A stretch of 64,000 nucleotides of DNA from Gammaproteobacteria bacterium (GTDB taxonomy: Bacteria > Pseudomonadota > Gammaproteobacteria > Steroidobacterales > Steroidobacteraceae), in the NCBI GenBank assembly GCA_009926865.1, contig RFOD01000002.1:28576-92575 (forward strand), written 5' to 3'. This document shows, one piece after another, positions 2,596 through 63,712 of the stretch. The notes under the pieces are model-generated. The model saw only the letters and a program-made list of their open reading frames with translations, searched no databases and had not been told where the DNA came from. Numbering within the stretch: position 1 is the first letter of the stretch; each line of letters begins with the position of its first letter. The position numbers and the translations under genes are program-made.

Positions 2596-2973
2596 ATGTC
2601 AAAAATCACCAATTCAAAGAAATTAAGTCAGTCGATGATGGGAGAGGCCATTCGTCAGCAACGTCGGCGCCTCGGTATGACGCAGGCGCAGCTTGCAACG
2701 CTGATCAAGACACAACCTGATAGTATCTCGCGTATCGAGCGAGGACATCATCAGCCCTCGTTAGCGCGGCTCGAAAAAATTGCCTCGGCGTTAGAGATTT
2801 CACCGGAAGCTTTAATCGCACGAGCCAGTCACTCGCCGAGTCGGGAAATACTCGCGTTATTAAAAGAGATTGAGTCCCTACACCCTGACGCTCAGTCCTT
2901 TGTGCTCGAGAGTCTGCGAAAACACATTGCCTTTTTCTCGCGCGAGAACAACGCTTCTTACATCCATGCTTGA
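2596..2973 (+). CDS. XRE-family helix-turn-helix transcriptional regulator
   Basis: Classic HTH_3 signature: LGMTQAQLATLIKTQPDSISRIERGHHQPSLARLEKIASALEISPEALI. The ATG at 2596 lies one codon inside the ORF-track start. Confidence 0.85.
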   Translation: MSKITNSKKLSQSMMGEAIRQQRRRLGMTQAQLATLIKTQPDSISRIERGHHQPSLARLEKIASALEISPEALIARASHSPSREILALLKEIESLHPDAQSFVLESLRKHIAFFSRENNASYIHA

Positions 2974-3005
2974 CCGGCCTTTACCGGTTCCGTGACACTC
3001 GGGTC

Positions 3006-4133
3006 ATGAGCAAGTTAGAACTCCACACTATGTTGGCCGAAAGTACTCATGATGAACGTGAGCGCCAGCTATTTGTCACGCAGCTACGCGGTCATTTGGC
3101 CAGTCGTGTGGTGCCGGGAAATTACGCGGTCTATGAGCGCCGTATTGAACCGAGTTTTCGCCGTCGCCATGGGCGCTCTCCACAGCACTTCAATGACGTT
3201 CGCGCTGCGATGGAACAAGACGGTTACTACCAGTTTTGGAGTGCGATGCAGCGTTGTAGTCAGGAGCTCATGTGGGAGTCGGTCATCGATCCGGTCGAGC
3301 GCGCTGCGAGTACGTTAAACCGAAAAGCAAAATCAGCCAAGCCTAAGACTAAAGGCTCACTTAAGTTGGATCCGAGCTTGGTGGTGCCTCGCTATCACAC
3401 GGCGGTCGATATCCATCTACAGCCCGGTGGGTACCATAGTGAATTTATTGAGGATGACGTCAGTGCAGGCGTGATCTATGACATGGCCCTCAATATTTAC
3501 TCGAATGGTAGCATGGGCCCGCGCAATGAATATTTAGGTGAACTCTTAGTAGGGTTTTTTTGCGAGCAATATCCAGACCGTCAGCCGCGCAAAATACTGG
3601 ATATGGGCTGTGCTATTGGTAATAGCACACTCCCTTGGGCAAAAGCATTTCCGCGATCGCGAGTCGAGGCGATCGACGTAGCCGCGCCGCAGTTAAGATA
3701 TGCGCATGCGCGTGCTGAAGCATGGGATATTCCAGTTCACTTTAGTCAACAAAATGCAGAGTGCACTCATTTCGAAGATTCAAGTTTTGATCTAGTGATC
3801 TCCCATATCATGTTGCACGAAACATCAAAATCCGCACTCAATCATATTTTGCGAGAGTGCCATCGAATTCTACGGCCAGGCGGTCTCATGTTGCACCTTG
3901 AGGTCCCTCGTGGCCGCACAGTACTCGAGCAGTTTTTGTATAACTGGGAGAGCTGGAACAATAACGAGACATTCGGTCAGTTCATGACCGAGGCCAGATT
4001 GGCGGACTTGGCATGTAAGGCGGGCTTCTCGTCAGAGGCCGTTGAGTGTCTTGATTATTCAGTTCGACGTGAAAAGGAGCAGCAGCTGTACTCTGCCGAT
4101 AGCTATTGGAAGATCCTGTTGGCTCAAAAATAA
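3006..4133 (+). CDS. Class I SAM-dependent methyltransferase with a ~190-aa N-terminal extension
   Basis: SAM-binding motif I (KILDMGCAIGNST), then DLVISHIMLHE and LRPGGLMLHLE. The start is ambiguous: TTG 2970 overlapping the XRE stop, or ATG 3006. Confidence 0.8.
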   Translation: MSKLELHTMLAESTHDERERQLFVTQLRGHLASRVVPGNYAVYERRIEPSFRRRHGRSPQHFNDVRAAMEQDGYYQFWSAMQRCSQELMWESVIDPVERAASTLNRKAKSAKPKTKGSLKLDPSLVVPRYHTAVDIHLQPGGYHSEFIEDDVSAGVIYDMALNIYSNGSMGPRNEYLGELLVGFFCEQYPDRQPRKILDMGCAIGNSTLPWAKAFPRSRVEAIDVAAPQLRYAHARAEAWDIPVHFSQQNAECTHFEDSSFDLVISHIMLHETSKSALNHILRECHRILRPGGLMLHLEVPRGRTVLEQFLYNWESWNNNETFGQFMTEARLADLACKAGFSSEAVECLDYSVRREKEQQLYSADSYWKILLAQK

Positions 4134-4150
4134 CGACTTCGATTATGGGG

Positions 4151-4582
4151 TCAGGCTGAGCTGCGCCAGGGTTCGCGCAAGATCCGCAGGATGCCCTGAA
4201 ACCGAGGATCGAGTGCCGGGGAAGGGGTGGCTGGTGTCGATTCGGGCGAGGTTGTGCGAGGCTCGACTGGCTCGATGGTGATGTCTTCGTAGGTGAGCTG
4301 CCCGAAGACCTCAGCGTCAGCGCCGAGCACGAGAGACTGTTGTGCCCCGACGTCGCCATGTACGCACCCGTGCAGTTCGATGTCGGTCGCTCTAACCGCA
4401 CCGTGGATTACCGCGGAATGATCCACGGAAAGCGTCGAGCGCCGCTGGGGTTGGGTGGGGGTCACATGCCCCAATACGGTCCCCGCGATGTGGGCGCCTT
4501 GGGCGAAGCGTAAGCTGCCGTGAATGACGGTATTCGCCCCAATAACCGTCTTGATTTTATTTCGTCGCAAGAGGCTTCGCAT
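4151..4582 (-). CDS. Bactofilin (DUF583) paralogue A1
   Basis: Repetitive beta-helix windings: TVIGANTVIHGSLRFAQGAHIAGTVLGHV ... AVIHGAVRATDIELHGCVHGDVGAQQSLVLGADAEVFGQLTYEDITIE. Pro/Ser/Thr-rich tail. Start taken at internal Met30 (MRSLLRRNKIK). Clear paralogue of 5574..6038. Confidence 0.75.
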   Translation of the reverse strand: MRSLLRRNKIKTVIGANTVIHGSLRFAQGAHIAGTVLGHVTPTQPQRRSTLSVDHSAVIHGAVRATDIELHGCVHGDVGAQQSLVLGADAEVFGQLTYEDITIEPVEPRTTSPESTPATPSPALDPRFQGILRILREPWRSSA

Positions 4583-4680
4583 GCACGGGAGTATGCAAAC
4601 TGCAGTGCAAGTTGCGTCCTTAAAACTGATCCAATATGGTAGTGTCTGCGCATAAACATAAAGGTTCACAGGCGGCCGTC

Positions 4681-5103
4681 ATGGACAGCAAGGATTCCAA
4701 AGGATGTCTCTTTGTCGGAGAGGGCGTCACGATCAATGGTGAAGTGGCCCTGCCGGGTGCAGTATTTGTAGACGGCGTCATCAACGGTCAGATCCGAGCC
4801 AACGAAGTCTTCGTTGGTGTCACAGGTCAAGTCAATGGCACCGTCAGCGCATCCAAGGCGGACATCCGCGGCGCCGTAGGCGATGCCATCGAAATCCACG
4901 AGCATATTACGGTGAGAGCCAGCGCGCGATTGCAAGGTAACGTGACCTATCGATCGCTTGAGATTGAGCGCGGCGGCGTGATTGAGGGTCAGCTGGTGTG
5001 CGTCGATGAGCCGATCGAGCCTGCGCCCGCACTCGTATCCCCGGCGTCTGTACCCTTGACGGAATCGGACGATGTATCAACCGGTTCCACGCCTAGTTCT
5101 TGA
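4681..5103 (+). CDS. Bactofilin (DUF583) paralogue B1
   Basis: GCLFVGEGVTINGEVALPGAVFVDGVINGQIRANEVFVGVTGQVNGTVSASKADIRGAVGD ... LQGNVTYRSLEIERGGVIEGQLV. Disordered C-tail. Start at ATG 4681 (MDSKDSKG). Paralogue of 6172..6621. Confidence 0.8.
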   Translation: MDSKDSKGCLFVGEGVTINGEVALPGAVFVDGVINGQIRANEVFVGVTGQVNGTVSASKADIRGAVGDAIEIHEHITVRASARLQGNVTYRSLEIERGGVIEGQLVCVDEPIEPAPALVSPASVPLTESDDVSTGSTPSS

Positions 5104-5124
5104 ATCCGATTTCATTGGTGACCC

Positions 5125-5571
5125 ATGTTTGGTAAACGCCGGAACGACGCGTCCAGCGAATCCCAGCAGTCTGAATCCACGCGTCAGTCTTTGGAGCCCC
5201 CAGTCATGAACGACCTGAGTCGAAAACCCCTTTCTGCCGCGGATGAGGCGTCTCGTAATCGGTTGGGCGTGATCTCAGAGGGTTTTGAATGCGAAGGGTC
5301 GATCCGATTTGATGGGCCTTTGCAGCTTGATGGGCGTTTCAAAGGCACGATGTCGGTGAAAAGTTTGACTATCGGTAAGACAGGAGACTGTGAAGCCGAT
5401 TTGCGCTGCAAATCTTTGGTCGTGCGTGGGCGTTTCACCGGTAAGGCGGTCTGCGAAGAGCTCGAGGTAGCGACGGGTGCCATCATCTTGGCGGATGTGG
5501 CCTATGGCCGCATCCGGGTTGCAGCGGATTCTCATATCCGCGGCCGTCTGAGCCATCAACCTATCGACTGA
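5125..5571 (+). CDS. Bactofilin (DUF583) paralogue C1
   Basis: N-terminal MFGKRR, a disordered linker, then FECEGSIRFDGPLQLDGRFKGTMSVKSLTIGKTGDCEADLRCKSLVVRGRFTGKAVCEELEVATGAIILADVAYGRIRVAADSHIRGRL. Paralogue of 6631..7035. Confidence 0.8.
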   Translation: MFGKRRNDASSESQQSESTRQSLEPPVMNDLSRKPLSAADEASRNRLGVISEGFECEGSIRFDGPLQLDGRFKGTMSVKSLTIGKTGDCEADLRCKSLVVRGRFTGKAVCEELEVATGAIILADVAYGRIRVAADSHIRGRLSHQPID

Positions 5572-5573
5572 GA

Positions 5574-6038
5574 TTACACGCGCGGTCGGCGCAGCATTTG
5601 CACCATATCCTGATAGCGTTTGACGGATTTGTTGCTGCTGCGTTCGTTTTCTAGTTCGCCCACTGATTCTTCGAGCAGCCGATTGGGGATAAACCGACCC
5701 ATCACTGAATTGCAGCCATCCACCGCGAGTTCTGAATAACACACATCGCCCGCCACACGAGCCTTGGCGCCGATCGTCACGCGTTGCAGAGCAAAGATAT
5801 CGCCGTCGACCGAGCCATGCACGATGACATCCGTACCGCGCACAGAACCTTTGACGATCCCCTTCTCTCCGATCCAAACCTGCGAGGGTTCGTCAGGGTT
5901 TTCAGGTGCCAAATCACCGAGCACTGTGCCGTCAATGTGAATGCCGCCCGAATAGGTTAAGTTGCCATCCACAAGCGTCCCAGCCCCAATCAAAGTGGCG
6001 AGCGCGCACGGTTTACCTTTTTTATCTCGACGAAACAT
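5574..6038 (-). CDS. Bactofilin (DUF583) paralogue A2
   Basis: MFRRDKKGKP N-terminus (ATG at 6038), then TLIGAGTLVDGNLTYSGGIHIDGTVLGDL ... IVKGSVRGTDVIVHGSVDGDIFALQRVTIGAKARVAGDVCYSELAVD. Its stop lies 2 nt from the stop of 5125..5571. Confidence 0.8.
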   Translation of the reverse strand: MFRRDKKGKPCALATLIGAGTLVDGNLTYSGGIHIDGTVLGDLAPENPDEPSQVWIGEKGIVKGSVRGTDVIVHGSVDGDIFALQRVTIGAKARVAGDVCYSELAVDGCNSVMGRFIPNRLLEESVGELENERSSNKSVKRYQDMVQMLRRPRV

Positions 6039-6171
6039 ATCGGCTGGGTTCCCCAAGTTGACCGTTCCACTGCGGATCAGTCTAACCCCGTTGCCCAGTG
6101 ATGGGCAGGTCTGACGAGGACGATAATCCGAAGTTGGCTACCATGACACAAGATGCGGGGGGTTGCGCAGC

Positions 6172-6621
6172 ATGATTGATCACACCAAAGACACCAAAGG
6201 GTGTTTATTTGTCGGTGAGGGGGTCACCATATCAGGCGAAATTACTTTGCCTGGCGCCATCTTCGTCGATGGTGTGGTGGATGGCACTATCGAGGCGCGC
6301 GAGCTCTTCGTCGGGGCTTCAGGGTGCGTCACGGGGAGCGCTAAAGTCGCGAAAGCCGACATTCGCGGTGTCATGGGGCAGCATCTTGAGGCCGCCGAAC
6401 ACGTGACTCTGCGTTCGACGGGTCGCTTGGAGGGCAAAGTTGTTTACCGCTCGATTGATATCGAGCGAGGGGGCATCGTACAAGGCGAGATGGTATGCGA
6501 AGCGGCGCTGCCGGAGACGGCAGCAGCGGCGCCTGCAGCAGAAGCGCTCGGTGATGAGCGAAGCCGCGACGCAGTAGCTTCATCCTTATCGGACCCAACC
6601 GATCCATCGGCTGCACCGTGA
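6172..6621 (+). CDS. Bactofilin (DUF583) paralogue B2
   Basis: MIDHTKDTKGCLFVGEGVTISGEITLPGAIFVDGVVDGTIEARELFVGASGCVTGSAKVAKADIRG ... VVYRSIDIERGGIVQGEMV. Ala/Pro-rich tail. Confidence 0.8.
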   Translation: MIDHTKDTKGCLFVGEGVTISGEITLPGAIFVDGVVDGTIEARELFVGASGCVTGSAKVAKADIRGVMGQHLEAAEHVTLRSTGRLEGKVVYRSIDIERGGIVQGEMVCEAALPETAAAAPAAEALGDERSRDAVASSLSDPTDPSAAP

Positions 6622-6630
6622 GGTTGGTCG

Positions 6631-7035
6631 ATGTTCGGTAAACGACGCGATAACACGCCTCCCGCGACGGCTGAATTAGAGACAGAGGTGTTGCCGGCAC
6701 CCCCTGCCCCGGCGCCGGCACGAGGTCGCCCCGCCTACTTTGGTCCCGGCTTTACGGCCGAGGGTGCAATCCAATTTGAGGGGCAGCTGGATCTTGACGG
6801 ACAATTCAGCGGTGATATCCGGGCGGCGCGCTTGATTATTGGTCCGACCGGCCGCTGTGATGGGACTGTGATCTGCGATTCACTGGTGGTGAAGGGGCGA
6901 TTCTCTGGGTCGGCAAGCTGTCGTGAGCTCGAGGTCCACACCGGCGCTCATTTGATGGCCGATGTCACGTACACTGAGATCCGTGTGACGCCGCGGGCCC
7001 AGATCTCCGGTCGGCTCATGCATCGAAACCGCTAA
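6631..7035 (+). CDS. Bactofilin (DUF583) paralogue C2
   Basis: MFGKRRDN N-terminus, then FTAEGAIQFEGQLDLDGQFSGDIRAARLIIGPTGRCDGTVICDSLVVKGRFSGSASCRELEVHTGAHLMADVTYTEIRVTPRAQISGRL. Confidence 0.8.
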   Translation: MFGKRRDNTPPATAELETEVLPAPPAPAPARGRPAYFGPGFTAEGAIQFEGQLDLDGQFSGDIRAARLIIGPTGRCDGTVICDSLVVKGRFSGSASCRELEVHTGAHLMADVTYTEIRVTPRAQISGRLMHRNR

Positions 7036-7043
7036 GCGAGTTA

Positions 7044-7061
7044 CCGCGACCTTTGTCGCGG
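7044..7061 (+). terminator. Short GC hairpin after the bactofilin array (weak terminator candidate)
   Basis: CCGCGAC-cttt-GTCGCGG, a 7-bp stem immediately 3' of the stop at 7035. No T-tract follows, so this is weak. Confidence 0.25.
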
Positions 7062-7110
7062 CGACCCTCGGTATACTCGGTCCTCTCCATCTTGGCGCGG
7101 GGCCTTATTC

Positions 7111-7689
7111 ATGAAACAGCTGAGCAGCACGTTGCTGAAAGGGCTACTGACCATCTTGCCCATCAGTTTGACCCTCTATTTCGCGTATTGGCTGGGTGTG
7201 ACCACCGAGAGTTTGCTCTCAGTACCCCTCAAAATGTTGGTCTCTGAGGCCTACTATTGGCCCGGTATGGGCGTGATCGCCGGAGTGCTCGTGCTGCTGG
7301 TCGTGGGTCTTTTGGTGAACGCCTATTTAGTTCGACGCTTGATCGAGTTTGGTGAGCGCTTGTTATTGCGCGTGCCGGTCTTAAAGACGGTCTACGGGGC
7401 GATTCGTGATCTCACTAGCCTCGTTCGCGTGGGCGATGGTGGGGGTGAGCTACAACGAGTGGTGCTCGTCGATGTCGGTCCGGGTCGAGTGATTGGGTTT
7501 GTGACCCAAGAGGCCGCGAGTTTGCCCGGTATGATAGAAGACAATTCTTTGGTGGCCGTCTATTTGCCCATGAGCTATCAAATCGGTGGGTATACCCTAT
7601 ATTTGCCACGAGAACGCTTGCAGCCGACGGATCTTTCCGTTGAGCAGGCGATGCGAATCGTACTCACGGGTGGCCTGCAAAACCGTTGA
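7111..7689 (+). CDS. DUF502-family membrane protein
   Basis: N-terminal LLKGLLTILPISLTLYFAYWL plus a second TM helix, then a soluble C-terminal domain. The architecture is typical of DUF502. The family call is from memory. Confidence 0.65.
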   Translation: MKQLSSTLLKGLLTILPISLTLYFAYWLGVTTESLLSVPLKMLVSEAYYWPGMGVIAGVLVLLVVGLLVNAYLVRRLIEFGERLLLRVPVLKTVYGAIRDLTSLVRVGDGGGELQRVVLVDVGPGRVIGFVTQEAASLPGMIEDNSLVAVYLPMSYQIGGYTLYLPRERLQPTDLSVEQAMRIVLTGGLQNR

Positions 7690-7731
7690 GTCGTTGTCGT
7701 TGAGAGATCCGAACACGAGAAGGTCAGAGTC

Positions 7732-9843
7732 ATGACGTCATTAGACTATTCCCTCCAGCAAGAGGTTGCGGTGATCGCTTTTGCATCGCCACCCGTTAAC
7801 AGTTTGGGTCACGGACTTCGGTCCGCTTTAGTGGAGGCGCTAGAGCGAGCCAAACGAGATGACAAAGTAGCAGCGGTTGTACTGATTGGCGCTAATGCAA
7901 CTTTTTGCGCAGGTGCGGATATCAAAGAATTTGGAACTTCCGCGATGTCGCGAGGCCCAGGTTTACCCACGCTGAATGCGACGATTGAGAGTCTTGGAAA
8001 GCCGGTGGTTGCCGCAATTGAAGGGGTGGCACTAGGTGGTGGGCTCGAGCTTGCCATGAGTTGTCATCATCGCGTCGCGCAAAGTGGTGCTCGCCTTGGG
8101 CTCCCTGAAGTCAAGCTAGGCTTGCTGCCGGGTGCGGGTGGCACTCAGCGATTGCCAAGACTCATCGGTATCGAAAACGCGCTCAATATCATGCTCTCGG
8201 GCGAACCCCTCCCTGCGAAAATGTTTCAAGGTTCTCCCCTACTCGATGCGGTGGTGGACCATGACTTACTCGATACGGCGATCGCCGTCGCCAAGCAGTC
8301 GGCTGCTGCTCACCAAGCCGGTAGCCGATTGCCGCGCGCACGAGATCTCAAAATCCGCGAGCTAGACCTTCAAGCGCTCTGTCAGTTTGCTCGGAATACC
8401 GTTAAGACCGCTTTTAAGCCGTATCCAGCACCTGCCGCGATCGTCGATGCGGTGGAATATGGAGCCCAACACGGTTTCGCCGCGGGTCTAGAGGAAGAGA
8501 ATCGTCTGTTCCGGGGTCTATTGGTTGATCCTGTCTCTGCATCGCTAAGACATATTTTCTTTGCTGACCGAGCTGCTGCGCGCATCAAAGACTTATCACC
8601 CGACATCAAACCGAGCGCGTTTGAAAAAGTCGCGATCATCGGCGCCGGCACGATGGGTACGGGAATTGCTATTAATTTCTTGACCGCGGGGATCGAAACT
8701 CGTTTGCTGGAAGTCAATCAAGAGGCGCTCGATCGTGGTGTGGAGAGAATTCAAAAGTATTTTGAAGGCCGAGTCAAAAAAGGAAAGCTCACAGCAGACA
8801 AAGCACAAGGGATGGCCAAGAACCTAGTACCCGTGCTCGATTACGCCCAGATTAGTGATGTGGATTTAGTGATTGAAGCGGTCTTTGAGGACATGGCAAT
8901 CAAAAAATCCGTGTTTTCTCAGCTCGATTCGGTTATGCGCGAGGGCGCGATACTGGCAACGAATACGTCCACACTCGATATTGATGAAATCGCTGCAACG
9001 ACTAAAAGAGCTGAGGATGTCATTGGTCTGCACTTCTTCAGTCCCGCCAACGTCATGAAACTGCTGGAAGTCGTCCGAGGAAAAAAGACGAGCCTACAGG
9101 TGCTGGCAACGGCCATGGCGCTCGCTAAGAAAATTCGGAAGACTGCGGTGGTATCAGGTGTCTGCGACGGCTTCATTGGCAACCGAATGATCAATCAATA
9201 TTCGGCGCAAGCTCTGGCCATGTTGGAGGAAGGGGCGAGTCCGCAGCAGATCGATGCAGCCATCGAAAAGTTCGGCTTTGCAATGGGGCCATTTCGCATG
9301 AGCGATTTGGCGGGTAACGATATTGGTTGGCATATCCGTAAGCGCCAATTAGCAGAGGGTAAACTGACGCGTACCTCTCTGATCGCAGATCGCCTGTGTG
9401 AGTTAGGTCGATTCGGTCAGAAGACAGGAGCCGGTTGGTATGACTACCGACTCGGTGATCGCCATGCGCATGTCTCGGAGGTCGTCGAAAAACTGATTGC
9501 AGAGCAACGCACAGCAAGTGGCGTTAGCACTCGATCTTTAGATGATGCAGAAATTGTCGATCGTCTCGTTTTCTCTTTGGTCAATGAAGGAGCGAAGATT
9601 TTGCAAGAGGGTATTGCACAGCGAGCTTCCGACATCGATCTAGTTTATTTGACGGGATATGGCTTCCCCATCTGGCGCGGAGGCCCAATGCATTACGCTG
9701 AATCTCGCTCGCTGTATGAAGTGGCAAGACGCATGCGTGAGTTTGCCACTTTACCGAGTGCCGATGAGGCATTTTGGCAGCCTGCCGACCTCTTGCAGCA
9801 ATGTATCGCGGCGGGACACGGGTTTGATGGAGGTGCAGCATGA
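7732..9843 (+). CDS. Bifunctional enoyl-CoA hydratase / 3-hydroxyacyl-CoA dehydrogenase (fatty-acid oxidation alpha subunit-like)
   Basis: N-terminal crotonase fold ([23 protein letters not shown]). Central Rossmann motif ([14 protein letters not shown]). 3HCDH C-terminal domains. Followed by a thiolase gene. Confidence 0.93.
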
Positions 9844-55373: not shown

Positions 55374-56652
55374 TGCCATCAAAAATTTTCTCGGGATTCA
55401 TCAAGAAGAGCTGAGTGCCAGCGTGTCTAAACTGACGCTTTTGGCGCTTGGTTTTCTGATCCTGACGGGTTGTGTGGTGAATGAGGTTCGGCCACAACCG
55501 AAGCTACAGGCGGTACAAGCGACGCAGATGATTGCGCAAGCCGAGCTGCTTGATGTTGCGGTCGTTGATTTTGATTCGGGAGTACCGAAAGCCTTACTCG
55601 ACGATGAGCAAGAGCTTGAAAAAAGACGGATTTATCCCGAGGTTAGGCGCGCCGAGTCTCGTCTACTTGCGGTAAGACTCAAAGAAACCTTAGAAAACAC
55701 GGGCCAATGGGGCGCGGTTCGGGTTGTGCCGCCAAGTGTCAATTATGTGGACGTCGTGGTGACTGGGCGGATCATCGAATCAACAGGCTCGGAGCTCGCC
55801 TTGCGAGTATCGGCACGTGATGCGTCGGGGCGAGTTTGGATTGACGACAAGCCCTATCAGGCCGACGCAGATTTGGGTTCCTATAAAACCGAAGCTGCCC
55901 TCAAGGCCCGCGATCCTTTTCAAAATATTTATGTACAGATTGCCGACGATTTACTGGCGGCGCGTCAGCAGTTAAGTGCTACGCAGCGACGCGAGGTTCG
56001 CCAGATCGCAGAATTACGTTTCGCAGGGGATTTAGATCCTGCTTCGTTTTCAGGCTACATACAGGCGAGCGAAGGTGGTCAGTGGTCTCTCGTGCGTTTG
56101 CCAGCAGCAGATGATCCAGCCTTGCTAAGAATTCGAGCTATTCGAGAGCGAGATGCCAGTGTCATCGATACCTTGGATGGCTATAACCAAGAGTTTTCGG
56201 ATCAGTTGTTTGAGTCTTATGGGTCATTTCGTCGTACTAGTCGCGAAGCGATTGAGAAGGCGGATAAGGCTCGAAATCAGGCGATGACCCGTACAGTATT
56301 GGGTGCAGCCGCTGTCTTGGGTAGTATTTTTGTGGGGAGTAATTGCTCGTCCATGGATTACAACTGCCGGCGTATAGACGATGCGGTACGGACTGCTGGG
56401 GTGATTGGTGGGACGGCGGCCGTTATGTCCGGTATAAAAAAATTCTCTGATGCCAAAATTGCGGCACAAGAAGTGCGTGAGTTAGCTGATAGTTTTGAGG
56501 CAGAGGTTGCCGGGCAGGTGGTGGAAGTCGAAGGGCGAACACTCAAATTGACGGGTACTGCTGAAGAGCAATACCGAGAGTGGCGTCGATTGCTGGCGGC
56601 GATCTATCGAGAAGAAACGTTGCCCGAGTCCGCTGCAACGCCAGCACCGTAG
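55345..56652 (+). CDS. Lipoprotein/membrane protein, unknown function
   Basis: Lipobox LGFLILTGC. The N-terminal domain has VAVVDFDSG, which looks LpoB/CsgG-like (inference). The C-terminal region has Gly-rich hydrophobic segments (VLGAAAVLGSIFVG, GVIGGTAAVMSG). Overlaps the upstream gene. Confidence 0.55.
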   Translation: MSTSAMHRDDAIKNFLGIHQEELSASVSKLTLLALGFLILTGCVVNEVRPQPKLQAVQATQMIAQAELLDVAVVDFDSGVPKALLDDEQELEKRRIYPEVRRAESRLLAVRLKETLENTGQWGAVRVVPPSVNYVDVVVTGRIIESTGSELALRVSARDASGRVWIDDKPYQADADLGSYKTEAALKARDPFQNIYVQIADDLLAARQQLSATQRREVRQIAELRFAGDLDPASFSGYIQASEGGQWSLVRLPAADDPALLRIRAIRERDASVIDTLDGYNQEFSDQLFESYGSFRRTSREAIEKADKARNQAMTRTVLGAAAVLGSIFVGSNCSSMDYNCRRIDDAVRTAGVIGGTAAVMSGIKKFSDAKIAAQEVRELADSFEAEVAGQVVEVEGRTLKLTGTAEEQYREWRRLLAAIYREETLPESAATPAP

Positions 56653-56669
56653 CCGACGCTGGAGCGCTG

Positions 56670-59009
56670 ATGGAGTTTTCCTTGTTCGAGAAGGGGCAAA
56701 GACTCTGCGACCGCTTCGTGTTGCTCGAAATACTTTACGCCGCAGACGACTGGTCGATTTGGCAGGCGCTGGATGAGCAGCGCTCCGTCCAGGTGGCCAT
56801 TAAATGCATCGTCCGTGATAACCCGCGAGCCGATGAACAATGGAGACTGATGCTTCGGCAATATGCCGTACGTTTACGACTCGATCACGAGCGAGTGCTG
56901 AGGATTGACGAGCCAGTTCGTGATCATGAAGTTTGTGTACTACCAATGCAGCTGGCCGCAGGCAACGCGAGTCGCTTACGAGGCAAGGCTTGGCGCCAAT
57001 GGCGTGCGGTTGCCATTGATGTGGCGCGTGCCCTAGCGCATTTGCATCAGCGTGGTTGGGTACACGGCGATCTCAAGTCAAGCAATGTCTTACTGGACTT
57101 CCGTGGCGATGCGTTGCTCGCAGATTTCGAATCGACCACCGCTTGTGGCGAGGTAGCGCCGCTTAGCGGCTCTCCATTCAGCGCAAGTCCCGCTCGCCTA
57201 CGCGAACAGCCAGTCAGCATTGCAGACGACCTTTACGGATTCGGTGCATTGCTGCATGAATGGATGACCGGTTACCCCCCGTATTTTCCTGAGCGACCGG
57301 ATCCGAGTCAGTTCCCGTCATTGCCTCCGTTACATTGCGTTCATCCGACTCCCGAGCATTTGAAATCTTTGGTCATACGTTTGTTGGCTTCTGAGCCAAG
57401 CGCTCGACCTTCAAATATGGCTGAAGTGCTTGAATGCTTGGAATGCGATGAGAGCGGTACAGTAAGCCCTGTACTCAGTGCTGACTCCGACGTATTCGAC
57501 ATATCACAGGTTATCGCCGTCACGCCAAATCGTGATGAGGCGCGAGTCGCTGAGCTCGCGGGCGACTCCAGAAAAAGTCGGCGGTGGATTGGTGTCGGTG
57601 TCGTCGCCGGGTTGCTGCTCGGCGGTCTTTGGTGGGTTTTGCCTCAATTGACGCAACAGCAAAGCGCACAGCTGACAAAAGCTTTGTCTGCTGCGCGCGA
57701 AGCGGCTGGGCTTGATGATGCTACGACCTCATCGAGTGTAGTGTCGGACTCCGCAGAGGGCGCCGGCGCGACCCTCGCGCCATCGGTACGTTACGCCACG
57801 CTCGAGGATGCTTATCTCGCTAAGCTCGAAGAGCTTGAGCGGCGTGCAGCCGGCGTCTGGGGTGGTGAAGTATTTGCCAGTGGTAAATCTTTGGGTCGCT
57901 TAGCCAAGGAAGCGGCCGATGACCGAGATTGGGAGATTGCTCTTGATCGGATTGCCGTAGCCACTCGTCGACTCGAGCGTGTCGAAGTTGACATCCCAGT
58001 AATTAAGGCCACTCGATTGCAAGATGCTGTGGCAGCGCTAGATCTTGGGCAGCTTGAGCTGGCGAGACAAAACTTTGATCTGGTGCGCCAAATTGAGCCT
58101 ACCGATTCTCAAGCGCTCGAGGGTCTGGAGCGTGTCTCAGCGCTCGCTGCTGTCTTGCCCGTGCTCGCCCAGGCGGAGTCGGCACTACTGGCAGGGCAAG
58201 CGCTACAGGCCTTAACTTTATTTGAGCAAGTTTTGCGGGTCGATGCCGGTAATCGTCGTGCTAAAGATGGCTTGCAGCAAGCGAGTTTAAGCTTAGGTAA
58301 CGATCAATTTGGTCAAGCGATTGGTGAAGCGCTCGCCGAATTGCGGGCGGGTGATTTTCCGGCCGTTGAATCGGCATTACAACGCGCAGCCGCGCTACGC
58401 CCCTTAGCGCCGGAGCTCGCAGCCGTACGCGCGCAGTTATCGGCGGGGGTTGAAAGGCGCGCCCTGGAGGGTGAGCGCGAGCGTATTCTCGCGCTCGAGC
58501 AGGCTGAACGCTGGGGTGAGGCTTTGCGTCGCTACGAGCAGGTCTTGGCGCAAGATCCCAGTTTGGTATTTGCACGTACGGGTCGGGAGCGCGTGGCTTC
58601 GCGAGCCCTTGTCGAGCAAAGATTTAATGCCTTGATCGGTGAGCCTGCTCGTTTGGTTTCCCCCGATGTGCGCAGAGAAGCGCAGCGACTCATTGCTCAA
58701 TCAGACGTATGGCTCAAAAAGGGCGGTGCGCCTGTGCTGGAGCGTCAACGTGCGGCTTTAGAGACAGAGTTAGAGCGCTTTGCGCAGCGAATTAGAACCG
58801 TCATTGAGTCAGATGGAATGACAGAAGTGCGCATCCAAAGGGTAGGTTCGCTCGGCGTCTTTGAACGCAGAGAACTTGAGTTACAACCTGGGCGTTATGT
58901 GGCGATTGGTACTCGGGCGGGGTTTCGTGATGTCCGTCTAGAGTTTTCTCTGATGCCGGGCGAGTCTACGCCCGTGATTGATGTTAGATGCTCGGAGTCG
59001 GTGACGTGA
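56670..59009 (+). CDS. Hanks-type Ser/Thr protein kinase (atypical motifs), one TM helix, periplasmic TPR-like region
   Basis: ATG 56670 preceded by GGAG. VAIK Lys (VQVAIKCI), catalytic loop VHGDLKSSNVLLD, DFE in place of DFG (LLADFEST), and DLYGFGALLHEWMTGYPPY. TM helix WIGVGVVAGLLLGGLWWVL. Repetitive helical Ala/Leu-rich region. C-terminal beta-domain (PGRYVAIGTRAGFRDVRLEF). Confidence 0.85.
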   Translation: MEFSLFEKGQRLCDRFVLLEILYAADDWSIWQALDEQRSVQVAIKCIVRDNPRADEQWRLMLRQYAVRLRLDHERVLRIDEPVRDHEVCVLPMQLAAGNASRLRGKAWRQWRAVAIDVARALAHLHQRGWVHGDLKSSNVLLDFRGDALLADFESTTACGEVAPLSGSPFSASPARLREQPVSIADDLYGFGALLHEWMTGYPPYFPERPDPSQFPSLPPLHCVHPTPEHLKSLVIRLLASEPSARPSNMAEVLECLECDESGTVSPVLSADSDVFDISQVIAVTPNRDEARVAELAGDSRKSRRWIGVGVVAGLLLGGLWWVLPQLTQQQSAQLTKALSAAREAAGLDDATTSSSVVSDSAEGAGATLAPSVRYATLEDAYLAKLEELERRAAGVWGGEVFASGKSLGRLAKEAADDRDWEIALDRIAVATRRLERVEVDIPVIKATRLQDAVAALDLGQLELARQNFDLVRQIEPTDSQALEGLERVSALAAVLPVLAQAESALLAGQALQALTLFEQVLRVDAGNRRAKDGLQQASLSLGNDQFGQAIGEALAELRAGDFPAVESALQRAAALRPLAPELAAVRAQLSAGVERRALEGERERILALEQAERWGEALRRYEQVLAQDPSLVFARTGRERVASRALVEQRFNALIGEPARLVSPDVRREAQRLIAQSDVWLKKGGAPVLERQRAALETELERFAQRIRTVIESDGMTEVRIQRVGSLGVFERRELELQPGRYVAIGTRAGFRDVRLEFSLMPGESTPVIDVRCSESVT

Positions 59010-61423
59010 CTCGCGACCAGATTTTTATCTTTGAGCCGATGGGTGATAGGGCGCTATCGGCGCCGATCCGTGTGGGGTCTGCAACGGACTGTGATGTACG
59101 CATTCCGGATGATGAGACAGATCGGGAATTAATCATTGATAGAGATTCTGAGGGGTGGTTCATTCTGATCACCGCCGATGGTGCAAATCTAAACGGCGTG
59201 CCGTTACAGAGGGACTGGCGTTATCAGTTGCAGACCGAGGATGTGTTACGGATCGGTGATGCAGTACTACGAGTTCGTCTACTCGAGACGGATTTGGAAT
59301 TGCTTATTGATCATCCAGAGGGTAACGCGACCTTGGCGCCTTCAGCGCCCGTTTCTTTGCTTCAATACGATGAGCAAGCCGAGGAGCGTATTTCCGCTGC
59401 GCCGCGTGAGTTTTCTAAATCAATACCCTCAGACGATACAGGTTATCGAGTCAATCGGAAATTTGTTTGGGGGTCTTTGTTCGGCCTGGTTGCCATCTTG
59501 TTACTGGTTGTTACGATTTTGGGGCGCTTGCAGCCAGTGACGTTCGTAGTCGATCCAACGACAGCTTCGGTGGGGGGCTCGGGCTTAGGCTGGACATCTG
59601 GCAATACGCTATTTTTGATGCCAGGTGAGCGGACAATTCTTGCGTCTGCAAAGGGTTATTCATCGCTCCAACAACGGGTGTCGATCAAGCCAGATGAGCC
59701 CATGAGTTTACAGCTGCGGTTGGAGCCCCTACCCGGGATTGTGGAAGTCGATACCGCGGGTGTCGCAGCTGAAGTCTTTGTGGACGGCGCGCGCACAGGT
59801 AAAGTGCCTGGAGACTTGGAAATACTGCAAGGCATGAGAACGCTGACCATTCGAGCAGATAAATATTTTGACGAAATTCGGCAGTTGGAAGTTGAGGGGT
59901 TTGGGGTGCGTCAAGTTATCTCGGTACCCCTTCGTCCATCCTGGGGAACCGTGCAAGTGCAGACCGACCGTGCGGCGGCGACTCTGATCATTGAGGGGCA
60001 GGACCCCATCCCATTACCCGCTGAAGTGCAATTGCCGGCTGGGCTTCATCGATTGGAAGTGGCGGCACCCGAAGCGAAGTCTTGGCGTGGAGCGGTTTTG
60101 GTGGAAGCGGGAGTCGTTCAAACAATCGGCCCGTTATCTTTGGGGGAGCCAGATGCGATCTGGCAAATAAGCTCTCGCCCATCGGGCGCGTCGGTCACTG
60201 TCAACGGTGTATTTCGCGGTCGGACGCCTCTGGAGGTCACGCTCACACCTCAGATGGAGCATCAGATTACGGTGGGTGAGCAAGGATATTCACAAGTTGA
60301 GCGGCGGGTTCGACCGATGCCGGCCGAACGTCAAACTTTGCAACTTAACCTAGACGTACGTCGAGTGACATTGACGGTTGAGGGTGAGCCCATCGGAGCA
60401 GAGATTTTCTTGGCAGGACGTAAGTTGGGGGTTTCGCCGCTGGAGGTGGAACTGCCGGCGCGCCGAGCACAGTTGAGTATTCGCCAGCAGGGCTTTACCG
60501 AACAGTCCTTAAGCGTGGATTTGTCGTCAGGCGTTGCGCGACAAGTGACCTATCGGCTTGTACCTGAGGGGCGATCAGCTGATTGGCAGCCCCCCGCGCC
60601 ACAGGTGAGCTTAGTTCAGGGGCCGGTGCTGCGTTTGATACAAGGGGGTAGTTTTACGATGGGTAGCGCTCGACGCGAGCAGGGACGTCGCTCAAATGAG
60701 TGGCAACGGCGCGTCACGCTGCAGCGGCCCTTTTATATGGGGACGCGAGAAATAAGTAACGGCGAGTTTCGTCGTTTTCGTGCAGATCACGCATCGGGGT
60801 TCATTGGTAAACGCAGCCTCGATCTGGATTCGCAGTCGGTGACGGGTATTAGCTGGGAGGATGCAGTCGAATACTGCAATTGGTTATCGGCGCAAAACGG
60901 GCTCACACCCGCATACACTAAAAAGGAGGGTCGTTGGACTTTGGTGCAACCCGTTAACACAGGTTTCCGGTTACCCACTGAGGCGGAATGGGAATTTGTC
61001 ACTCGAGTTGAACCGGACGCCGCGCCAGTTCGTCGCTATCCCTGGGGCATGCAATTGCCGCCACCTATCGCAACGGCGAATCTTGCGGGCGAGGAGGCTG
61101 CAGCCGATTTATCGAGGACCCTCTCAGGATGGCGTGATGAGTATGTTGTGGTGGCGCCCAGCGCACAGCATCCGGCTAACACGAGAGGTTTGTACGATTT
61201 ATTAGGTAACGTGTCAGAGTGGGTGCATGACGCGTACGCAACGGTGCCTGAAGGGGAGCCCTTGGATCCGATCGGGCCGACCATAGACACTCGCTTACGA
61301 GTGATCAAAGGAGCTAATTGGCGAACGAGTCAATTTGCCGACTTACGTGCGGCGTGGCGGGACGGGCGCGATCGCCCCGCTGATGACGTGGGGTTTCGTA
61401 TTGCGCGCTATGCAGAAGAGTGA
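58988..61423 (+). CDS. FHA-like domain, TM helix, multiple PEGA domains and FGE/SUMF1 (formylglycine-generating-enzyme-like) domain fusion protein
   Basis: N-terminal FHA-like segment (PIRVGSATDCDVRIPDD ... VLRIGDAVLRV). TM helix FVWGSLFGLVAILLLVVTILG. PEGA-like repeats (AAEVFVDGARTGKVPGDL, ASVTVNGVFRGRTPLEV, GAEIFLAGRKLGVSPLEV). FGE-sulfatase motifs (GGSFTMGS, ISWEDAVEYCNWLS, RLPTEAEWEF, GNVSEWVHD, VGFRIARY). An alternative GTG start at 59006 gives a GTGA overlap with the kinase stop. Confidence 0.85.
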   Translation: MLGVGDVTRDQIFIFEPMGDRALSAPIRVGSATDCDVRIPDDETDRELIIDRDSEGWFILITADGANLNGVPLQRDWRYQLQTEDVLRIGDAVLRVRLLETDLELLIDHPEGNATLAPSAPVSLLQYDEQAEERISAAPREFSKSIPSDDTGYRVNRKFVWGSLFGLVAILLLVVTILGRLQPVTFVVDPTTASVGGSGLGWTSGNTLFLMPGERTILASAKGYSSLQQRVSIKPDEPMSLQLRLEPLPGIVEVDTAGVAAEVFVDGARTGKVPGDLEILQGMRTLTIRADKYFDEIRQLEVEGFGVRQVISVPLRPSWGTVQVQTDRAAATLIIEGQDPIPLPAEVQLPAGLHRLEVAAPEAKSWRGAVLVEAGVVQTIGPLSLGEPDAIWQISSRPSGASVTVNGVFRGRTPLEVTLTPQMEHQITVGEQGYSQVERRVRPMPAERQTLQLNLDVRRVTLTVEGEPIGAEIFLAGRKLGVSPLEVELPARRAQLSIRQQGFTEQSLSVDLSSGVARQVTYRLVPEGRSADWQPPAPQVSLVQGPVLRLIQGGSFTMGSARREQGRRSNEWQRRVTLQRPFYMGTREISNGEFRRFRADHASGFIGKRSLDLDSQSVTGISWEDAVEYCNWLSAQNGLTPAYTKKEGRWTLVQPVNTGFRLPTEAEWEFVTRVEPDAAPVRRYPWGMQLPPPIATANLAGEEAAADLSRTLSGWRDEYVVVAPSAQHPANTRGLYDLLGNVSEWVHDAYATVPEGEPLDPIGPTIDTRLRVIKGANWRTSQFADLRAAWRDGRDRPADDVGFRIARYAEE

Positions 61424-61701
61424 GTTCTGACGTGTCTACCCTAAAAGCCAGTAGTCGTCTGTCGCAAGCCACGGGTTGGCGCATGATTGTCGCGACTGCG
61501 TTGACGGCAATCATTTGTTGGCTCGTGGTACTTGTGATGTTGCGCGGTGTCGTCGCGCAGAATGCGGAGCCCGTTGGGACCGAGACCAACGAAGAAGAGG
61601 TGGTGTCGCGCCGTGTTTTGCCGCAGACAGAGCGAGAGGCGGACGCACCTGAATTTCGTGAGTCGGCGGATAACAATATTAGCTTTCCGGTGGATATATG
61701 A
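61420..61701 (+). CDS. Small single-pass membrane protein
   Basis: 93-aa ORF with TM helix WRMIVATALTAIICWLVVLVML. Overlaps both neighbouring genes by 4 nt (GTGA and ATGA). Confidence 0.5.
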   Translation: MSSDVSTLKASSRLSQATGWRMIVATALTAIICWLVVLVMLRGVVAQNAEPVGTETNEEEVVSRRVLPQTEREADAPEFRESADNNISFPVDI

Positions 61702-62495
61702 AAAAGTTGCCCAGCGAATTCGTCTTTATTGTGGCGGCATTATTGATTGCCGCCGTATTTGTGCACTCGGTCTACATTTTGCACATACGGCCTGTTGCTG
61801 AAATGACGCTCAAAATTGACCGCGAGCGTATGGCGGAGGACCCTGAGTACGTCGCAGACCGTTCCATATATGTGGTTATCAAAGATTATGAGCAGCAGGC
61901 CACGATTACGCTGATGTTATGGGCCTTGGCCATTATGGCCTTCAAGGCGATACAGCAACGCCGGGAAGCGGAGGTACTGGAGTCGGAATTGCTACGCTTG
62001 CCAGACGGCGTCAAGATTTTGCCCGAAGACACTCGGGAATACATGCGTCAGGTCGAGTCATTACCGATCGATACTCGAGGCTTATTGGTGCCGCGTGCAT
62101 TGCTTGGGGCACTGGCGAGATTTGGTGCTACGCGTAATGTTCAAGACGCTTCAACAGTAGCGCACGGGATCTGTCAGTCAGAGGCGGAACGTCTAGATTC
62201 TGATTTGGCATTGTTGCGGTATATCGCTTGGGCGATTCCCGCGATTGGTTTCATTGGTACGGTACGCGGCATTGGCGATGCGCTATCCCAGGCGCATAAA
62301 GCCGTCACGGGCGATATCTCTGGTGTGACCGAGGGCTTAGGCGTTGCGTTCAATTCGACCTTAATTGCGCTATTGTTATCAATTCTTCTGATGTTTTTGA
62401 TGCAACAGCTGCAGCAAGCTCAGGAGCGTCGAGTGCTCGATACCGAGACGTGGCTCGATCAAAAAGTCATCCGTAATCTGCAAGCGCGTGGCTAA
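61698..62495 (+). CDS. MotA/TolQ/ExbB-family proton-channel protein
   Basis: Three TM helices. PF01618-type signature: LRYIAWAIPAIGFIGTVRGIGDAL ... GVTEGLGVAFNSTLIALLLSILLMFL. Confidence 0.85.
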   Translation: MKKLPSEFVFIVAALLIAAVFVHSVYILHIRPVAEMTLKIDRERMAEDPEYVADRSIYVVIKDYEQQATITLMLWALAIMAFKAIQQRREAEVLESELLRLPDGVKILPEDTREYMRQVESLPIDTRGLLVPRALLGALARFGATRNVQDASTVAHGICQSEAERLDSDLALLRYIAWAIPAIGFIGTVRGIGDALSQAHKAVTGDISGVTEGLGVAFNSTLIALLLSILLMFLMQQLQQAQERRVLDTETWLDQKVIRNLQARG

Positions 62496-63712
62496 TGATT
62501 GGCGGTTTTCTCAATGAGCAGCAACTGATTCTGTCTGCAGCGGACGGATCACAGACCCTGCGTGCGGAGTTGGATGCGGGTCTTGATCAACGAGGTTTGC
62601 AGATCGCCAAGCAATGGCATAGCGCAGGCTTTCCCGACGCTCAGTTTTCTTTGGCAACGACCGCTCACGAGACCCCCGACCGATTGGCGGAGCTACTATC
62701 TACTCTGGATCGTGAAGGCTTGTCACTTACAGCGTTCATGGACTCGGCCGCATTGGTGGCGGGTGCGGTGGGTTTTAAAGGGGTAGGACTCGTCCTGCAA
62801 TTCCTACGTCATAGTGCATTAGTGACTCGCATTGTAGAGACGGAGGGTCGGTATCGTCGTGCCGCATTTTCCGTCGGAGAGGGTTGCGGACTGATAGATA
62901 TCCGTCGCGCCTGTCTGCAGTGCATTGCAGATCGTATGATTCGGCAAAGCCGTTTCGATCCACTGCACGATGTAAAAGACGAGGAGTATCTGGCGACCCA
63001 TTTGCTTGATTGGCTAAAGCAGGCGATGGAAGAAGGTTCTGTCACCATCAGCATGACGGCGCTCGGTAAGTCAATCGAACTGACGATCAGCTTGGGTGAG
63101 TTCATCAATGCAACAGAGCCTATCTTCAAAAAAATCCGAACTTTGGTGCTGGACACTCGACTACCTGGGACACGCGACTATCTACTCCTCCCTGACTGGC
63201 TAGGCCACACGCCAGGCGCTCGCGAGTATGTCGCGGCGCTGTCCGGATCAGCAGCTTATCTATTTGATGAATCGATCATTGCGCGTGCGGCTGCGCGCTG
63301 TGTACTTCCACCACGCGAGGATGACGCGGTCACGTTATATCGGCAGGTCGAGTTAGCGCCCTTTGCTGAAAGGGAAATCAAGTCGTTTAACGCTGAATCC
63401 AGTGAGTATCGCGCGCCGACTCACCTTCTTTATGGAAGTCGCGTTTGGCAGCTGATGACGTCGATGCGAGTGGGTCGAGGCGCTGACTGCACGGTGGTAT
63501 TGCCTCAAGGTGTAGCAGGCATATCACGTGATCATTGTACGTTGACAAGGCTGGACGACGAATGGGTGCTGATTGATCACAGTCGTTATGGTACGTGGAT
63601 CAATGATGAACGAGTCCGTGGTCGGCAGCGACTGGCGGCAGGAGATCGAGTGCGCGTGGGTGATCTAGGTGTTGAGCTGAATCTGATCACTGTGAGTGAC
63701 AATGATGGCTAA
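62495..63712 (+). CDS. Cytoplasmic protein with unknown ~300-aa N-terminal domain and canonical C-terminal FHA domain
   Basis: FHA signature: VGRGADCTVVLPQGVAGISRDHCTLTRLDDEWVLIDHSRYGTWINDERV ... GDRVRVGD. No TM segment. Start abuts the ExbB-like stop. Confidence 0.8.
   Translation: MIGGFLNEQQLILSAADGSQTLRAELDAGLDQRGLQIAKQWHSAGFPDAQFSLATTAHETPDRLAELLSTLDREGLSLTAFMDSAALVAGAVGFKGVGLVLQFLRHSALVTRIVETEGRYRRAAFSVGEGCGLIDIRRACLQCIADRMIRQSRFDPLHDVKDEEYLATHLLDWLKQAMEEGSVTISMTALGKSIELTISLGEFINATEPIFKKIRTLVLDTRLPGTRDYLLLPDWLGHTPGAREYVAALSGSAAYLFDESIIARAAARCVLPPREDDAVTLYRQVELAPFAEREIKSFNAESSEYRAPTHLLYGSRVWQLMTSMRVGRGADCTVVLPQGVAGISRDHCTLTRLDDEWVLIDHSRYGTWINDERVRGRQRLAAGDRVRVGDLGVELNLITVSDNDG

Follow-up and report, generated by a model that had tools for sequence, protein, structure and literature searches.

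Six contiguous bactofilin genes of three conserved architectures in uncultured Acidibacter-like Gammaproteobacteria

Why would a bacterium keep six bactofilin genes side by side? The question is raised by a 2.9-kb gene array (positions 4151-7035) within a 64,000-nt stretch of gammaproteobacterial DNA, the whole of which is referred to here as the window. Bactofilins polymerize without nucleotides, and it is still unclear in the field how cells govern the length and composition of these polymers and their attachment to the membrane. The array encodes six genuine bactofilins, ordinary members of a well-known family, which fall into three types (A, B and C). Judging from alignments, these types are three distinct conserved architectures, each of them present twice.

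The array consists of A1 (4151-4582, - strand, 143 aa), B1 (4681-5103, + strand, 140 aa), C1 (5125-5571, + strand, 148 aa), A2 (5574-6038, - strand, 154 aa), B2 (6172-6621, + strand, 149 aa) and C2 (6631-7035, + strand, 134 aa). An open reading frame (ORF) and spacing check reproduced the six ORFs, strands, coordinates and intergenic distances given in an earlier note on this DNA. On the same strand, B1 and C1 are separated by 21 nt and B2 and C2 by 9 nt, C1 and A2 are convergent with stop codons 2 nt apart, and the A and B genes diverge across gaps of 98 nt (A1|B1) and 133 nt (A2|B2). The start codons of five of the six genes are backed by conserved N-termini in orthologs, the exception being A1, the exact start of which is uncertain by about four codons. 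Other mechanically called ORFs (e.g., 5275-5877, - strand) were rejected as off-frame overlaps, and public annotations contain no gene there.

All six proteins match the Pfam profile PF04519 with 63-77 bits, far over the curated cut-off of 27.9 (E 3e-17 to 1e-21), which bears out their earlier assignment to the bactofilins. The individual E-values are 3.4e-17 for A1, 1.4e-21 for B1, 2.9e-19 for C1 (domain at residues 49-142), 1.1e-20 for A2, 2.3e-19 for B2 and 1.7e-20 for C2, and the matches of the A-type proteins end at profile position 88-91 of 98. A search of NCBIfam assigned none of the six proteins to a named family. B1 additionally matches the PDB sequences of Caulobacter BacA (2N3D, E 1.4e-12) and Thermus TtBac (6RIA, E 2.3e-8). 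Structure models obtained with AlphaFold2 (AF2) cover A1 and A2 and contain a beta-helix at residues 12-103 of A1, with a predicted local distance difference test score (pLDDT) above 90 and disorder thereafter, and at residues 15-118 of A2; the tails outside the beta-helix core have low pLDDT in both models. In a Foldseek search, the A1 model was most similar to the Thermus thermophilus bactofilin 6RIA (TM score 0.91, root-mean-square deviation 1.2 Å), followed by 6RIB.

Protein identities within the pairs amount to 38.6% (A1/A2), 53.7% (B1/B2) and 48.5% (C1/C2), compared to 20-30% across types. Neighbor-joining trees (106 domain columns, 200 bootstraps) grouped C1 with C2 (bootstrap 99-100%), B1 with B2 (72-88%) and A1 with A2 (55-57%). 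Identities and phylogeny thus recover the three paralog pairs proposed in the earlier note, whose by-eye estimate of about 40-60% identity within pairs proved right. Orthologs in related genomes are 59-93% identical, whereas the paralogs share 36-54% identity, and this greater divergence places the duplication before the split of these lineages, in line with the old duplication suggested previously. At the DNA level, the two gene sets match best over a local stretch of 49 nt at 80% identity, and their global alignment is ~69% identical; since no long near-identical DNA is shared, an assembly duplication, which would have left nearly 100% identity, is excluded. Furthermore, purifying selection maintains all six genes as far as the comparison with orthologs tells: their reading frames are intact in all lineages, nonsynonymous divergence (dN) is well under synonymous divergence (dS), and dN/dS ranges from 0.03 to 0.23, ratios that are rough because dS is saturated. 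A1 is the fastest-evolving (0.06-0.23) and A2 the slowest-evolving gene (0.03-0.06).

C-type proteins start with an N-terminal MFGKRR motif that is invariant in C1 and C2 orthologs (MFGKRRN at 5125-5145 and MFGKRRD at 6631-6651, both on the + strand), followed by a linker of 35-48 residues, the bactofilin domain and almost no C-terminal tail. The linkers of C1 (~40 aa) and C2 (containing the conserved proline-rich sequence PAPPAPAPARGRPAYFG) are each conserved among orthologs and different from one another. The consensus of the bactofilin membrane-targeting sequence (MTS) is MFSKKKK, in which F2, K4 and K7 are critical (PMC12448750). By sequence, a putative MTS is present in C1 and C2 (MFGKRR) and in A2 (MFRRDKK), degenerate in A1 and absent from B1 and B2; not every bactofilin carries an MTS. 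Three cysteines are also invariant across C1 and C2 orthologs (C76, C82 and C97 in C2 numbering), which may be stacked positions of the beta-helix core or functionally relevant.

B-type proteins are acidic, with isoelectric points of 4.4 (B1) and 4.6 (B2) compared to 6.7-8.1 for the A and C types. Their N-termini, M(D/E)SKDSKGC in B1 orthologs (MDSKDSKGC in the window) and MIDHTKDTKGC in B2, directly precede the helix without an MTS, and their C-terminal tails are long, disordered, poorly conserved and rich in proline, alanine, serine and acidic residues. In A-type proteins, a short basic N-terminus adjoins the beta-helix (MRSLLRRNKIK in A1, a degenerate form; MFRRDKKGK in A2, 6012-6038, - strand, MTS-like) and a disordered C-terminal tail ends in a conserved amphipathic peptide. 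This peptide is present in all A1 orthologs (DPRFQGILRILREPWR, 4163-4210, - strand) and, as a conserved variant, in A2 (SVKRYQDMVQMLRRPR, 5580-5627, - strand); it is specific to the A type and missing from the nearest bactofilins outside the clade. Its hydrophobic moment of 0.59-0.65 (0.63-0.65 in A1) is like that of the membrane-targeting helix of Escherichia coli FtsA in the same computation, and the AF2 model of A1 predicts a helix at residues 126-136 with low confidence.

A1 differs from the other five proteins at the end of the beta-helix. Its PF04519 match covers profile positions 1-88 of 98, and its AF2 model is without the last two beta-strands, both of which are present in the A2 model (residues 111-113 and 116-118). 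In an alignment with TtBac and BacA, the strand that aligns with TtBac F105 and BacA F130 is deleted in A1, while A2, B1, B2, C1 and C2 have valine or isoleucine at this position. F130R is the standard polymerization-deficient variant of BacA (PMC12448750), and F105R is the TtBac mutant used for crystallization. Bactofilin filaments are non-polar and built from two kinds of end-to-end interface, and alignment and models together indicate the loss from A1 of the terminal strands that would contribute one of these two polymerization interfaces. The truncation is common to all A1 orthologs. Without one polymerization face, A1 may end or limit filaments.

The spacers between the divergent genes were described in the earlier note as promoter regions. 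Intergenic region 1 (IG1; 4583-4680, 98 nt, between A1 and B1) contains conserved blocks including AGTATGCAAA, and an alignment of five orthologous regions also revealed a conserved TTGCGT-17 nt-TATGGT sequence on its + strand. Intergenic region 2 (IG2; 6039-6171, 133 nt, between A2 and B2) contains a near-invariant block of ~60 nt (TTGACCGTTCCACTGCGGATCAGTCTAACC...GTGATGGGCAG...GACGATAAT). Each spacer thus has the length previously given and is strongly conserved in orthologs, and it is this conservation that points to a promoter function, as a scan for consensus sigma-70 promoters found no site at threshold in either region. IG1 and IG2 are not alignable to one another, and because they are conserved yet unrelated, the two gene sets appear to be separately controlled. 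Terminator-like matches were no commoner than in shuffled sequences, with none between B and C genes, and neither tRNAs nor Rfam families were detected in the window.

Exact-protein matches and a one-genome-per-species scan place the window in uncultured Acidibacter-like Gammaproteobacteria (metagenome-assembled genomes (MAGs) GCA_049432365.1 and GCA_049431655.1, and 'uncultured Acidibacter sp.' MAGs). The full six-gene array was found in the same context in five loci (L001, L002, L003, L008 and L009), including three from relatives in which B1 is 76-96% identical (L003, L008 and L009), and partial copies in seven others (L004-L007 and L039-L041). The gene order is BNR-repeat protein, thioredoxin-like protein, HTH_3 protein, S-adenosylmethionine (SAM) methyltransferase, array, DUF502 protein, FadJ-like protein and thiolase, and is constant across loci except that the SAM methyltransferase is missing in L007. 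A survey of synteny in relatives accordingly shows both the array and its flanks recurring in Acidibacter-like MAGs and metagenome contigs. When 5.8 billion proteins were searched with the A-type profile, members of the clade scored at least 171 bits and nothing else exceeded 94 bits, and with the C-type profile the scores drop from 113 bits within the clade to 75 bits beyond it. A metagenome scan with the C-type profile retrieved two contigs only, both identical to the window, and is uninformative on distribution. The B type belongs to a wider subfamily (CLFVGEGVT...LPG) that also occurs in Polynucleobacter, Ferrovaceae and some alphaproteobacterial MAGs.

Three metagenome contigs (L037, 229-1616; L038; and a 4880-nt ENA contig of sample ERZ22067504) encode the one stand-alone triad that was found, in the order B+ C+ A- beside a TetR-family gene. 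Its members group with B1 (bootstrap 83), C1 (100) and A2 (96), and the triad thus corresponds to the middle genes of the hexad, B1-C1-A2, and to neither of the modules of the earlier note. Sample ERZ22067504 also holds a hexad contig (L040) with the normal right half including DUF502. Furthermore, Ferrovaceae and related MAGs (L021, L022, L024 and L026) contain three contiguous bactofilin genes oriented + + -. Their products are a B-type protein, a second protein in which a long linker bears an N-terminal FSK motif, and an opposite-strand protein with a basic N-terminus. A divergently transcribed M23 peptidase gene comes directly after these triads; in L024, triad and peptidase gene together span 5995-8270, and the peptidase gene (7254-8270) matches PF01551 with E 5e-33. 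Only the B member is demonstrably related to its Acidibacter counterpart, the other two not grouping with C or A. Three bactofilin genes spread over 3-4 kb with two interspersed ORFs were found in Polynucleobacter hallstattensis (L011, 3817-6923) and in eleven further loci (L010, L012-L020 and L025). One of the interspersed ORFs encodes 344 aa without a Pfam hit, and the other encodes 115 aa with an N-terminus (MQLIWISG...) that resembles the Ferrovaceae M23 peptidase, the peptidase domain being absent. We do not claim that the triads of Ferrovaceae and Polynucleobacter are orthologous to A, B and C; the B type alone is clearly shared, and the other two members group with neither C nor A.

Taken as a whole, the explanation that we favor, and consider probable, is that the array originated when a three-gene set underwent segmental duplication long ago, is chromosomal and vertically inherited, is confined to the Acidibacter-like clade as far as the searched data show, and provides specialized subunits for membrane-bound mixed bactofilin scaffolds analogous to BacNOP of Myxococcus. 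B and C would be co-transcribed, given their gaps of 21 and 9 nt on one strand, and B, C and A would co-assemble end-to-end or laterally into membrane-apposed, nucleotide-independent polymers. Co-assembly of clustered paralogs has been described for BacNOP (PMC5703909), BacA/BacD (PMC10945521) and Rhodomicrobium BacABC (PMC10259793), and MTS-dependent membrane binding of bactofilins is cooperative (PMC12448750). Membrane attachment would come from C and probably also from A2, whereas B would reach the membrane only via co-assembly, with its tail displayed. The C-terminal peptide of A would serve as a second membrane contact or as a docking site for clients. The two sets would be non-redundant, given their unrelated control regions and different C linkers, and A1 could possibly terminate filaments. 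By analogy with studied bactofilins, the cellular role would most likely be the spatial organization of the cell envelope or cell wall. A division of labor in which C anchors the cytoskeleton, B is an unanchored acidic filler or display subunit, A2 an adaptor with a C-terminal docking or membrane helix and A1, with one polymerization face kept and the other lost, a dedicated filament-end subunit that caps filaments or limits their length, seems improbable to us. If true, A1 would be the first bactofilin cap known from nature and would provide length control for a nucleotide-independent polymer.

That the array is an artefact of assembly, or consists of redundant copies drifting towards pseudogenes, has a negligible probability and is refuted by the data. 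Nothing was found in favor of this view apart from the evolution of A1, the fastest of the six, and its loss of two strands. Against it, several MAGs and metagenomes yielded the array in independent assemblies, the two sets are diverged, all six frames are intact with dN/dS of at most 0.23, and A1 orthologs share both the truncation and the C-terminal motif. A different register of the repeat deserves more weight. The earlier note read the locus as (A- B+ C+) x 2, which offers the simplest duplication history but is only one reading, as the stand-alone triad reads B+ C+ A-. If the evolutionary and functional unit were B+ C+ A- with convergent C and A genes, the hexad would be a relic of a longer (B C A)n array or the result of a B-C-A set duplicated into an A|B-C locus. 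The triad of L037 and L038, which has exactly the order and orientation of B1-C1-A2 in a TetR context, would fit such a unit; however, its members nest in the B1, C1 and A2 clades, which makes it younger than the duplication and possibly an excerpt of the hexad. Likewise, the Ferrovaceae and related triads run + + - with an M23 peptidase gene next, but orthology to C and A could not be demonstrated for the second and third members of the Ferrovaceae triad. Together with the ease with which a single A-B-C tandem duplication gives the observed order, this leaves the B-C-A unit possible, though doubtful. The two modules are, moreover, not equivalent: each contains all three types, but A1 is truncated, the putative promoter regions are unrelated and the C1 and C2 linkers differ.

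These same differences could mean that the genes form separate systems, either several homopolymers or two independent three-component sets, with different cellular tasks and conditions of expression, clustered by local duplication only. The mutually unrelated but individually conserved IG1 and IG2, the likewise conserved but different linkers of C1 and C2, and the structural difference between A1 and A2 would all fit that case, and there are precedents in Myxococcus, where BacM acts apart from BacNOP (PMC5703909), and in Rhodomicrobium, where only BacA gives a strong phenotype (PMC10259793). We nevertheless regard it as unlikely, as the division into A, B and C persists in the two copies as well as in the stand-alone triad, and B is without an MTS in all lineages seen and always located 9-21 nt upstream of an MTS-bearing partner, an arrangement that fits dependence on co-assembly. 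Several observations weigh against a mixed scaffold of old, selected subunits. The A1+A2 clade has a bootstrap value of just 55-57%, saturation of dS makes the dN/dS ratios imprecise, the C-terminal helices of A1 and A2 are predicted at just pLDDT 40-64, and the sigma-70 scan of the two spacers came back empty. Moreover, the A genes are transcribed apart from B-C, so that the layout, called stoichiometric in the earlier note, need not mean a fixed 1:1:1 ratio. An M23 peptidase was not found among the ORFs of the 64-kb window (phmmer search with the Ferrovaceae M23 protein) or the annotated neighbors, and the latter included no penicillin-binding protein (PBP), ParA or PadC-like gene; without a linked client gene or peptidoglycan enzyme, the cellular role is a guess. 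A heteropolymeric A/B/C scaffold is still plausible by analogy, with BacNOP, BacA/BacB and BacA/BacD as precedents.

Two neighboring genes are conserved. An HTH_3/XRE-family regulator (2593-2973, + strand) is encoded immediately upstream in every locus, and in L007, where the SAM methyltransferase gene (2970-4133 in the window) is absent, it directly abuts A1. As this adjacency is kept even without the methyltransferase, the HTH_3 protein is a candidate regulator of the array, for which the Bacillus subtilis regulator BacR, encoded with bacEF, offers a loose precedent (PMC13649987). Downstream, all hexad loci have a DUF502 membrane-protein gene (7036-7689, + strand) that shares the strand of C2 and begins 75 nt past it, and the spacer contains a short inverted repeat (CGCGAC-CTTT-GTCGCG) without a T-run; co-transcription of B2-C2 with DUF502 is conceivable. 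In L003, a run of Ns (~6414-6640) representing an assembly gap deletes the N-terminal part of C1, which accounts for the shorter C1 of 121 aa called there and in some other annotations. Unrelated to the array, the window also contains a three-gene signaling cluster at 56580-63712 (+ strand), which encodes a Ser/Thr protein kinase of 809 aa, an 811-aa protein with PEGA and FGE-sulfatase domains and a 405-aa protein with an FHA domain.

The locus represents a compact natural test set for bactofilin polymers, consisting of subunits with and without an MTS, one missing a polymerization face and an unexplained C-terminal peptide, all of them conserved under selection and available as two diverged forms. 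Should the subunits co-assemble, it could reveal what builds and limits bactofilin polymers of mixed composition. As the evidence stands, it is a lineage-specific expansion in an uncultured organism without a linked client or phenotype, whose function is proposed by analogy; we therefore see in it a good experimental system for bactofilin specialists and no surprise for the wider field.

Six copies exceed the number in every characterized organism found in the literature, in agreement with the earlier note. Leptospira, with the five dispersed bactofilins LbbA-E, likewise has a high number of paralogs in one genome, and Myxococcus has four; no description of a contiguous array or of a structure of three types present twice was found for LbbA-E. 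The literature contained no account that we could find of six-gene bactofilin arrays or of bactofilins in Acidibacter, and nothing usable on Acidibacter morphology. Outside the clade, the A type is most closely related to a single housekeeping bactofilin encoded in the order argC, DUF6776, bactofilin, erpA, anmK and M23 (~4300-5800 in L031-L036), a locus widespread in beta- and gammaproteobacteria. This protein also accounts for the hits that follow the clade members in the A-type profile search. It is ~38% identical to the A type, forms its sister in the tree and shares a loop insertion (PGKPSTL vs PTQPQRRSTL). Unlike the A type, it is present as a single copy in another context, its N-terminus is a canonical MFNKK, and a C-terminal peptide of the RFQGILRILR type is missing.

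Caulobacter crescentus BacA/BacB and Hyphomonas neptunium BacA/BacD, the latter associated with the M23 peptidase LmdC, have the same beta-helical polymerization domain, and in both cases the paralogs co-polymerize (PMC12448750, PMC10945521). By sequence, C1, C2 and A2 match the MFSKKKK-type MTS of the Caulobacter and Hyphomonas bactofilins, whereas B1 and B2 have none. A hydrophobic residue occupies the position aligned with BacA F130 in five of the six array proteins, the strand that would carry it being missing from A1. In contrast to these systems, no M23 peptidase or PBP gene lies next to the array, which comprises six copies instead of two. The Ferrovaceae triads beside an M23 peptidase gene, on the other hand, represent the published bactofilin-LmdC arrangement (PMC10945521) with three bactofilin genes.

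The best precedent for specialized subunits encoded side by side is bacN-bacO-bacP of Myxococcus xanthus, where adjacent bactofilin paralogs likewise differ in their terminal tails and form a single scaffold, in which one paralog makes up the core and a second has a long client-binding C-terminal tail (PMC5703909). The bacNOP genes lie on one strand in one putative operon with non-bactofilin ORFs and are tied to PadC/ParABS, whereas the array comprises six genes, that is, three types present twice, with the A type always on the opposite strand and no linked client gene. Orthology of A, B and C to BacN, BacO and BacP is not claimed. The protein family and the clustering of bactofilin paralogs are already known, and the array is a clade-restricted expansion of this family, not a new kind of system. 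New are the six contiguous genes, the set of three architectures present twice, a class without an MTS, a subunit lacking one polymerization face and a clade-specific C-terminal peptide.

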